From contig OZ024748.1 in NCBI GenBank assembly GCA_964016885.1, forward strand, positions 11,036,001-11,100,000: a DNA stretch of 64,000 nt, in the 5' to 3' direction. Position numbers and translations under genes: made by a program. This document shows positions 51,901-54,900 of the stretch, piece by piece. The DNA is from Eledone cirrhosa. Taxonomy: Eukaryota. The first letter of the stretch is position 1. Each line of letters begins with the position of its first letter. Below the pieces are notes generated by a model, which searched no databases, had not been told where the DNA came from, and saw nothing but the letters and a program-made list of their open reading frames with translations.

Positions 51901-54900
51901 CGAAACGGCTTGAGCTCTGCCGTCGGGGTCTTGAACATTTATATATATATATATATATATATATATATATATATATATATATATATATATATATATAGAG
52001 AGAGAGAGAGAGTGAGAGACACACACACATAGTTATATGGTGGCTGCCAACTCGTTTTCGAGTACGGCCACTACTTTATATCCATGTAGGAGAACCCCTA
52101 CCGATGCGCTGAACGAGTGTGACTTTTTAGTCCAGCCAGCGACTTGAAAACTCTGGTACAAACACTACACTTGTGACAATTATTGACACATAGTGCTGGG
52201 CCCATGGTAGCATGTGACGACAAGTGCAGAGAGATCTCCAGATATAAAGCAATGCCTGTGCCGTGAAGCTTTTATAGTGAGCAAAGGCACTGCACAAAGC
52301 CAGTCCCACTCTCTTAACCAAGATGATATTTACCAAAAAGAAGAACAAGTCAACATCATTGGATACCATCAGGGTTGCAGGTGTTATATCAGAGTTTTCC
52401 TTCTCCTAGAATTCTGCCTTGACAAAGGCTAAGGGGTCAGCTCTCCCGGTGATTTTGGATGGCCATTGACTCTCAAGAGCTCCTTTGCCCTTCGACAGGT
52501 TTTGTTTTTAGTCCTGCAGGATGTCCAAAGTCACCCTCCTCACCAAGAAACCTTGGTGGGGTTGCCAGTTTAGTCGCCAACGACCCGACCATGGGACAGG
52601 TTGTACTGGGATACATGTTACCAGTAGCACCAACTGGTGACCATACATACATATATACACACACACACACATACATACACACATATATACACACATACAT
52701 ATACACATACATACATACATACACACATACATACATACATATATATATACATACATACATATATACATACATACATATATACATACATACATATACACAT
52801 ACATACATATATACACACATACATATATACATACATACACACATACATACATACATATATATATACATACATATATGGTGGCTGCCAACTCGTTTTCGAG
52901 TACGGCCACTACTTTATATCCATGTAGGAGAACCCCTACCGATGCGCTGAACGAATGTGACTTTTTAGTCCAGCCAGCGACTTGAAAACTCTGGTACAAA
53001 GACTACACTTGTGACCACCACTGACACACAGTGCAGGGCCCACGGCACCATGCGACGACAAGCGCAGAGAGATCTCCAGACATAAAGCAACGCCTGTGCT
53101 GTGAAGCTTTTATAGTGAGCAAAGGCACTGCACAAAGCCAGTCCCACTCTCTTAACCAAGATGACACTTACCAAAAAGAAGAACAAGTCAACACCATTGG
53201 ATACCATCAGGGTTGCAGGTGTTATATCAGAGTTTTCCTTCTCCTAGAATTCTGCCTTGACAAAGGCCAAGGGGTCATCTCTCCCAGTGATTTTGGATGG
53301 CTATTGACTCTTAAGAGCTCCCTTGCCCTATAGTTATATAGTCATCTACATACAGACACATATGTAAATATATATATTCTGCTGCTGCTGCTGCTACTAC
53401 TACTACTACTACTACTACTACTACTACTACTACTACTACTACTACTACTACTACTACTACCACCGCTGCTGTAGGACAAGTATAAAAGTGAGCTTACTCT
53501 CTGTTTTAACAAGAAGGCTGAGCACTGCAGTGGTACACCAAGTAGCTTATGTGGGTTCCAGGTTAAGGATTGGGCTCTGGTGATAGATAGAAACATGGAT
53601 TAAGGCTTAAGGGACCCACAAATGAATTAGGAGGGGCTCATGAAACATCCTATATAATATGAATGGTTATAAAATAGTGATGATAGTATGTACTATATAT
53701 ATAATGAATAAGGGGATTATATATATAGCTGAGAAATGTCGACGTAATCATAGTGATTATGAGGTCTTTTTTAGGGTTTATGTTTACTCACACCAACCCT
53801 TTTAGTTGCAGGGATACGATGTATCTATTCTAAACTGGGTTTCAGAGTATGATTAGAATAGAGCCAGTGGTGAGAAATAGAATGAGATGTTTGGGTCATG
53901 TGTTGAGGAAGAATGGAAATGGTTGTATGTGAGGAATAGAGCTAATTATAAATGTAAGGAGAAATGGAATGAGATGGTTGAGTCATGTGTTGAGTTTTAA
54001 GGGAAATGGAACAATTATTTTCATCCCTAGATATTTTTAAAATTGAAAATTGAGTCTATTTTACGTTACCTTTCAACTCCGTTCAACAAATGTCGATGTT
54101 TTTTGGACATTAGTACTGAACCACCCCAGGCTCCCTGGAATAGAATTAGCATATATAAATATAAGTTATTTGCAGAATACACACACACACACACACAGAC
54201 ACTCACATAAACACACACACATACACATACATACAAATATACATACAGACTCTCACGTACGCAAATACATATATATATATATATATATATATATATATAT
54301 ATATATATATATATATATATATATATATATATATATATGGCTAAACTTCCATAATTTTGAATTAAGTCCCTCCCTCATCCCCCAATTAAATTTAACATCA
54401 CACCCCTTCATCGTATACTTTCACTACCCCACTTTTAATGCTCCCCTTCTTTCTTTACTTCTTTCTTTGGCTTCTTTCATCCTTCATTCCTTCTAACCTA
54501 TTTCTTCAAACCCCCGACACACACACACACACACACACACACACACACACACACACACACACACACACACACACACACACACACACACACACACACACAA
54601 TCCAATGCTAGTAATCGGTCGATCAGTGCTGTATTGATCTATCGATTTATTCATCAGCTCCCACTGTTAACATCCCACGGTAATATTTACTGTATAAAAA
54701 CTATAGAAATATAATTGAAAATAGAGTAGAGACTGGAGCGACGTAGAATGAAGTGACTTGCTCAAGAACACAACATGTTCCCAAGACCGAGCACCAAGCC
54801 CTCACCAATTTACGAACGCGAGTCGAACACCCTGATCCCTAAACCAATACAACAATATAAAAAATAGAACCTACTTACATCAACATGAAGCCAAATATTG

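Follow-up and report, generated by a model that had tools for sequence, protein, structure and literature searches.

Clustered A-to-G changes in a retroposon family of Eledone cirrhosa as probable traces of ADAR editing in genomic DNA

A retroposon copy in the genome of Eledone cirrhosa differs from its sister copies only by A>G changes on its sense strand. The copy (copy 3 in Table 1) lies in a 64,000-nucleotide stretch of contig OZ024748.1 (assembly GCA_964016885.1, positions 11,036,001 to 11,100,000), which is called the window here. Compared with 23 sisters that are mutually identical over element positions 1-453, copy 3 has 15 T>C differences on the forward strand and zero other differences; on the sense strand, all 15 are A>G. 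Judged from the sequence, copy 3 is very probably a young insertion in which the 15 changes were made by ADAR on the RNA, which was then reverse-transcribed into the DNA of the germline or the early embryo. A preliminary description of this stretch had proposed that a hyperedited RNA was retrotransposed into the genome. The proposal is supported, with ADAR named as the agent from the signature, and a screen of further copies found the same A>G clusters with avoidance of a 5' G.

Table 1. Features of copy 3 and its surroundings (positions in the window; p, element position)
Feature	Position	Strand	Remark
Copy 1	47100-47708	-	full-length, other subfamily; one A>G at hot site p144
ATAGTTATAT	52029..52038	+	candidate target-site duplication left of copy 2
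Copy 2	52038-52642	-	almost full-length, of the other subfamily; A>G cluster absent
(CATA/TA)n microsatellite	52643..52875	.	separates copies 2 and 3; apparently the 3' tail of copy 3 or its target
Copy 3	52876-53329	-	5'-truncated, 454 of 609 bp; young subfamily B
3' part (ORF-end remnant and 3' UTR), p38-216	52913..53091	-	predicted self-fold; family-wide A>G excess
C2H2-type zinc finger remnant, end of parent LINE ORF	52942..53013	-	scored on copy 2, placed by offset
Main A>G cluster of copy 3	53018..53091	-	11 sites, 53056 ambiguous
Four outlying A>G sites of copy 3	53165..53268	-	53165, 53167, 53194, 53268
T>C sites of copy 3, first part	53018, 53019, 53021, 53029, 53043, 53046, 53053, 53056	+	
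T>C sites of copy 3, remainder	53063, 53081, 53091, 53165, 53167, 53194, 53268	+	
ATAGTTATAT	53330..53339	+	candidate target-site duplication right of copy 3

The preliminary description had compared copy 3 with copies 1 and 2 and had counted about 21 private differences, of which about 14 were T>C on the forward strand and none was A>G. A recount against the same two copies gives 21, 14, and 0. The span reported for them (53010-53329) holds 19 of the 21 differences, and the remaining two fall outside. Subfamily markers common to 31-47 other copies account for eight of the 21, T>C at 53322 among them, and site 53019 had been left out of the list, since copy 1 also has C there. Proper alignment sharpens the strand asymmetry to the 15/15 given above. 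At site 53056 (p181), C is the family majority, so this change may be ancestral and 14 firm sites remain. At each firm site, T is found in every other copy that covers it (74-80 of 74-80); C is not the majority allele of the family at these sites and does not define a large subfamily. In the spectrum of the family, as taken from unselected copies, A>G accounts for 131 of 839 changes. Under this spectrum, the chance that 14/14 changes are A>G is about 5e-12, a value not corrected for the choice of copy 3 by eye beforehand. One of the 14 firm sites (53194) has a 5' G on the sense strand, and the earlier remark that such sites are few thus stands. Within copy 3 alone, 1 of 24 adenines with a 5' G is changed against 13 of 92 others, which are too few sites for a neighbour preference. 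No private G>A is present in copy 3 relative to the 23 sisters.

The element is 609 bp long, non-autonomous, and of the RTE type, an assignment that we assume from its architecture and motifs. At least 24,000 copies exist in the 3.0-Gb, microsatellite-rich assembly. Exact matches in the genome number 21,001 for a 27-nt motif of the 5' part and 24,243 for a motif at p136-159 (p is counted from the left end of the element on the forward strand; in copy 3, the window position is 52875 + p). The left end is kept in 103 of 118 copies, and the right end is reached by 51 of 118. By inspection of the flanks and by translation, the copies sit in (TA/CATA)n runs and have no ORF. In a relative that is 70% identical, the 5' part is followed on the same strand by an endonuclease ORF (PF03372, 27.3 bits; cut-off 24.5). 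The full-length homologues of this ORF are single proteins with endonuclease and reverse transcriptase (RT), about 1,050-1,200 aa long, some of them with C2H2 fingers. The zinc finger remnant in the 3' part (Pfam score of 23.7 bits on the minus strand of copy 2, below the cut-off of 25.2) is 80% identical over 20 aa to the ORF end of a relative, and the terminal 33 nt are 85% identical to relatives. With the 5' part found before an endonuclease ORF and an ORF-end remnant in the 3' part, the element thus combines a 5' part (from the 5' UTR of an RTE-type LINE) with the 3' end of such a LINE, joined near p212, and its sense strand is the minus strand. The latter had been presumed earlier, and both the pattern of 5' truncation and the endonuclease ORF of the relative confirm it.

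An older family that is about 70% identical to the element occurs at loci L097 (2389-2615 and downstream), L048 (894-1120), and L244. One of its copies is bipartite with a longer, three-finger ORF end, another lies before a broken endonuclease ORF, and young copies of the element cluster beside copies of this family. An autonomous partner was not found by a search with the zinc-finger peptide, which returned no longer homologue, or among the RT loci, where the best 30 RVT_1 loci have no DNA match to the element. The RVT_1 loci that were inspected are presumably CR1-like, judging from their C-terminal motif. A young LINE family with many intact 945-aa ORFs (L219, L222, L225, L229, and others) is unrelated to the element, and we take it to be CR1-like from the same kind of motif. 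An Rfam scan of 46900-53600 gave no match at the gathering score and none on the element. Bipartite non-autonomous RTE LINEs, e.g., RTESINE, MAR4_MD, and WALLSI3, have been described (Kojima, PMC5786205), and an RTE LINE, RTE-2_OV, is transcribed in octopus (PMC9115989). As far as the cited parts of these papers go, the likeness consists of a 5' part joined to an RTE-type LINE 3' end, the lack of an ORF, a microsatellite tail, and 5' truncation; unlike those elements, the present one is likened by architecture, its own autonomous partner not having been found.

Copy 2 lies 233 bp from copy 3 and serves as an internal control: of these two copies, only copy 3 has the edited pattern. The 10-bp repeat ATAGTTATAT brackets copies 2 and 3 jointly, so both copies may have inserted at once through a template jump; alternatively, copy 2 may have entered the tail of copy 3. 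A third occurrence of the repeat is found in a microsatellite at 41631, and the pair may be due to chance. Same-orientation runs of copies separated by (CATA/TA)n exist at many loci (e.g., L002, L129, L160, and L166), which suggests that the element inserts into its own tails. Ten copies end exactly at p410, a hot spot of truncation. The window also contains other repeats. Palindromic MITE-like elements are found at 38426-38630 (99% self-complementary over 205 bp), 32103-32413, 41766-42010, 40358-40584, 39064-39180, 42512-42660, and 3929-4150. A 315-bp repeat forms an inverted pair (36771-37085 and 61512-61826; 97% complementary, 24 kb apart), and an exact tandem duplication of 97 bp is located at 23505-23698.

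Clusters like that of copy 3 are found across the genome. Copies were collected with the cluster of copy 3 as a query, with a two-site pattern, and, as the unselected search, with a 5' motif; a later search with a pattern at p88-90 gave a separate set. In the first collection, removal of 27 duplicate matches to the same places reduced 317 copies to 290, and removal of six relatives of less than 80% identity left 284 (the unselected set went from 125 to 123). Sixteen positions with subfamily markers were excluded before counting. A copy was called a hyper copy for a given type of change when it had at least five such changes and they made up at least half of all its changes. By this threshold, 29 of the 284 copies are hyper copies for A>G, most of them found by pattern search, compared with none for T>C, none for C>T, and two for G>A. 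After four of the 29 were collapsed as shared lineages, 25 independent copies remained. The clusters occur on both subfamily backgrounds, and the same sites recur in differing combinations. In 55 copies that were selected on p134-224, the unselected positions p1-133 show A>G in 114 of 1814 cases against T>C in 5 of 1836; A>C (3), A>T (5), and the other changes are at or below background.

The changes are clustered within a molecule. G occupies p88, 89, and 90 at once in 21 copies genome-wide, and each of these has four or more of five A changed, against single-site G rates at these positions of 0/107, 0/108, and 2/108. In the 13 copies with this pattern that had not been met before, A>G is found in 55 of 1453 cases outside the pattern and T>C in 9 of 1543. 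A count of 70 double A changes against one double T change was rejected as a proof of clustering: it matches independent single-site rates (9% x 3% of 24,243 predicts about 65, and 60 were seen) and reflects hot A sites only. At locus L067 (1164-1725), an edited copy is flanked on its 5' side by another edited fragment (p113-224), which overlaps it in part and has its own set of edits. Such an arrangement suggests that a template jump took place from one edited RNA to another.

The unselected set consists of the 123 copies found by the 5' motif in the first 21 Mb of one contig, plus neighbours. Two of the 123 pass the threshold, one of them as a borderline case (95% interval 0.2-5.8%). If this rate holds, the genome would have roughly 50-1,400 hyper copies. 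Note that unselected copies also have G>A more often than C>T (195 vs 139), so milder strand biases of other origin exist in the family. The p-values from pooled copies are optimistic, with related copies included.

The A>G excess coincides with a predicted RNA fold. In unselected copies, p38-216 has A>G in 96 of 4502 cases and T>C in 33 of 5613 (p=5e-12); without the partly inherited sites 42 and 134, the excess persists (66/4290, p=3e-6). This interval was picked from the hyper copies and the fold, independently of the unselected sample. Beyond it, the A>G excess in unselected copies is not significant, and their 5'-neighbour order is the same as in the hyper copies. Compared with shuffled sequences, the predicted fold of p30-220 has a z of -4.5 at 37°C and -5.3 at 18°C, and the other thirds have +1.5 and -0.2. 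A smaller A>G cluster at p270-345 (17/432) coincides with a second predicted hairpin, with 1/272 in between. Three of the outlying sites of copy 3 (53165, 53167, and 53194) fall in this second hairpin, and 53268 is predicted to be unpaired. Editing per site does not follow predicted pairing (rho -0.05), and the hot sites 88-91 and 143-144 are in predicted loops, which are disfavoured for ADAR. Site rates in hyper and ordinary copies are correlated (rho 0.49, 116 sites). G at p134 and at p146 is found on many unrelated backgrounds, the outcome expected of recurrent editing. In some copies, editing extends to the 3' end (L249, p4-347), consistent with pairing to an antisense copy in a duplex. 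Both the predicted self-fold and such a duplex are likely to have served as substrates. An inverted neighbour is present in the fetched locus of 4 of the 29 hyper copies; the source loci may differ. At locus L127 (605-1675; about 6406100-6407170), two copies (p70-609 and p77-609) in opposite orientation meet at their 3' ends. Each arm of this fold-back has about 535 bp, and its transcript would form a long double-stranded RNA.

The changes also depend on the 5' neighbour. In the 25 independent hyper copies, the change rate of sense A is 30% after A (74/246), 24% after U (77/321), 13% after C (57/444), and 0.8% after G (1/125); outside the search query, it is 0/75 after G. At the level of sites, G is lower than C (p=0.006) and C is lower than A/U (p=0.01). 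In the 13 copies with the p88-90 pattern, 3 of 49 adenines after G and 7 of 171 after C are changed, where all three of the former represent one site in three related copies. No preference for a 3' neighbour emerged in the hyper copies. Depletion of G upstream is reported as a motif shared across metazoan ADARs (PMC5625713).

The same data bear on mutagenesis at the DNA level, which is an improbable source of the clusters. Here an error-prone polymerase, e.g., Pol eta, would act on the cDNA or during second-strand synthesis or repair and produce A>G at WA motifs. Sites after A or U are indeed the most changed, loop adenines are changed, and second-strand synthesis would be expected to yield the right polarity. 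However, Pol eta treats 5' C and 5' G both as cold contexts, and for this reason the rate after C, which is far above that after G, argues against it. Further points against it are the purity of the changes (the sense A of the 25 independent hyper copies, which were chosen for A>G richness, became G 241 times, T four times, and C twice, i.e., 241/247) and the confinement of the excess to the predicted RNA fold. Quite improbable is a second source, bursts of misincorporation of C opposite A by the RTE reverse transcriptase, e.g., upon an imbalance of the dNTP pool. Such bursts would match the polarity on the sense strand and the pattern per insertion. By the next-nucleotide effect, an excess of dCTP favours misincorporation where the next template base is G, and sites with a 5' G should then be favoured, but the data show the opposite. 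This source also gives no reason for confinement to p38-216, and A>C and A>T are at background.

An artefact of assembly or polishing in copy 3 is likewise quite improbable. The edited haplotype of copy 3 was not seen in four independent contig sets at 99%, and its flank is equally uncovered there. At 90% likeness, the same contigs give only a family-level signal around copy 3; a contig signal of depth 12 was seen at the junction of copy 3, and at 99% no contig lies over the edited stretch or the flank. Against an artefact, the sense-strand pattern is found in both genomic orientations (16 vs 13 hyper copies), a 5' G is avoided, a single pattern recurs at ten loci on eight contigs, and neighbouring copies are mostly unaffected: in 23 of them, 20 of 122 changes are A>G, near the background of 16%, and copy 2 has none.

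It is hardly credible that copy 3 has kept ancestral or CpG-intact alleles or has received them by gene conversion from an older subfamily: four of the 14 firm changes create a CpG on the forward strand and 53056 may be ancestral, but T is near-fixed at all 14 sites, copy 3 carries derived subfamily-B markers, six distant relatives have sense A in 27 of 29 covered cells at five sites and G in none, and the pattern of copy 3 was not found in any second copy among the best 40 scored matches. The caveat of the preliminary description, CpG decay in the other copies, fails in the same way, with T near-fixed across the family, no TpG at 10 of the 14 firm sites, and A in the distant relatives.

Editing of the RNA by ADAR remains the preferred reading, and the following course of events is proposed. 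A long imperfect stem predicted in the 3' 180 nt would recruit ADAR, as would, for some copies, a duplex formed with an inverted copy. Adenosine in the element RNA would become inosine. Inosine is reverse-transcribed as G: the RTE reverse transcriptase would place C opposite it, and the second strand would receive G. Editing would not always block mobilisation, with edited RNAs still inserting, and an edited copy could seed a subfamily. The insertion would be heritable, because it is present in the bulk assembly. The adenosine-deaminase domain PF02137 is found above the cut-off at four places in the genome, a domain match that does not distinguish ADAR, ADAD, and ADAT1. Two other deaminations were considered and rejected. 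ADAR acting on the cDNA strand of an RNA:DNA hybrid would produce T>C on the sense strand, and APOBEC editing is contradicted by the lack of private G>A in copy 3 and by only 2 of 284 copies passing the threshold for G>A.

Some edited copies have probably multiplied. Ten dispersed copies on eight contigs have 15-17 A>G changes in common, together with transversions at 65, 136, and 177. Their immediate flanks differ, and longer flank matches resemble neighbouring repeat copies. A second, small lineage (L257, L259, and L260) has eight A>G changes and two transversions in common; L259 and L260 may be a single local duplication. L076 and L082 share 11 A>G changes. Because one edited pattern is common to ten dispersed copies, it is likely that edited insertions were transcribed and mobilised again and that an edited copy became a new source. 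We lean slightly towards a broader reading, in which ADAR would be a routine heritable mutagen of this family. Heavily edited copies would make up 1-2% of the family, in a large share of ordinary copies one or two G's of the folded 3' domain would stem from editing, edited copies would found subfamilies, and more than 24,000 insertions would form a readable map of germline editing.

Several known systems resemble this one in part; the comparisons extend to the portions of the papers cited. ADAR-type A-to-G hyperediting has been reviewed for Rous-associated virus, avian leukosis virus, and HTLV-2/STLV-3 (PMC12925331). Those retroviruses are alike in that their A>G changes cluster on one strand, are ascribed to ADAR, and reach the DNA through reverse transcription; in one case, the changes lie within an inverted repeat. 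Here, in contrast, the substrate is a non-LTR, non-autonomous host retroposon in an assembly; the independent events are numerous, and one edited lineage has multiplied. Fossils of APOBEC DNA editing are found in vertebrate LTR elements (Knisbacher and Levanon, PMC4866542). They are alike in their strand- and motif-biased clusters, in the involvement of a host deaminase and retrotransposition, and in the use of mirror-strand controls. However, they consist of G>A from deamination of cytosine in cDNA of vertebrate LTR elements, with invertebrates as the negative control, and the term ADAR never occurs in the main text of that paper; the clusters described here are A>G, have an ADAR-type context, and belong to an invertebrate non-LTR element.

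ADAR hyper-editing of repeat transcripts is reported in metazoans and coleoids (PMC5625713, PMC9068888), and coleoids edit repeats across tissues (PMC9068888). Repeats as the main targets and upstream depletion of G are features in common with the present family. Self-folding repeats are edited without an inverted partner, and coleoids have a tissue-wide, repeat-directed class. Those are transient RNA events, whereas here the pattern is in genomic DNA, and the downstream-A preference reported for invertebrates is not clearly seen here. A search of titles and abstract openings, which took in few subscription journals and no supplements, found no published description of ADAR fossils in non-LTR elements.

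This locus adds an exact unedited reference, a frequency estimate from unselected copies, confinement to a 3' part that is predicted to fold, and edited source lineages. The family is near-clonal and provides predicted hot sites in addition to the unedited reference, which makes the proposal unusually testable. RNA editing is usually regarded as transient. If the reading given here is true, editing enters inherited DNA via the ordinary LINE machinery, frequently enough to bias the evolution of a very abundant repeat and to found subfamilies, and it does not always halt a retroposon. It would also imply ADAR activity in the germline or the early embryo, where coleoid editing has, to our knowledge, been little studied.
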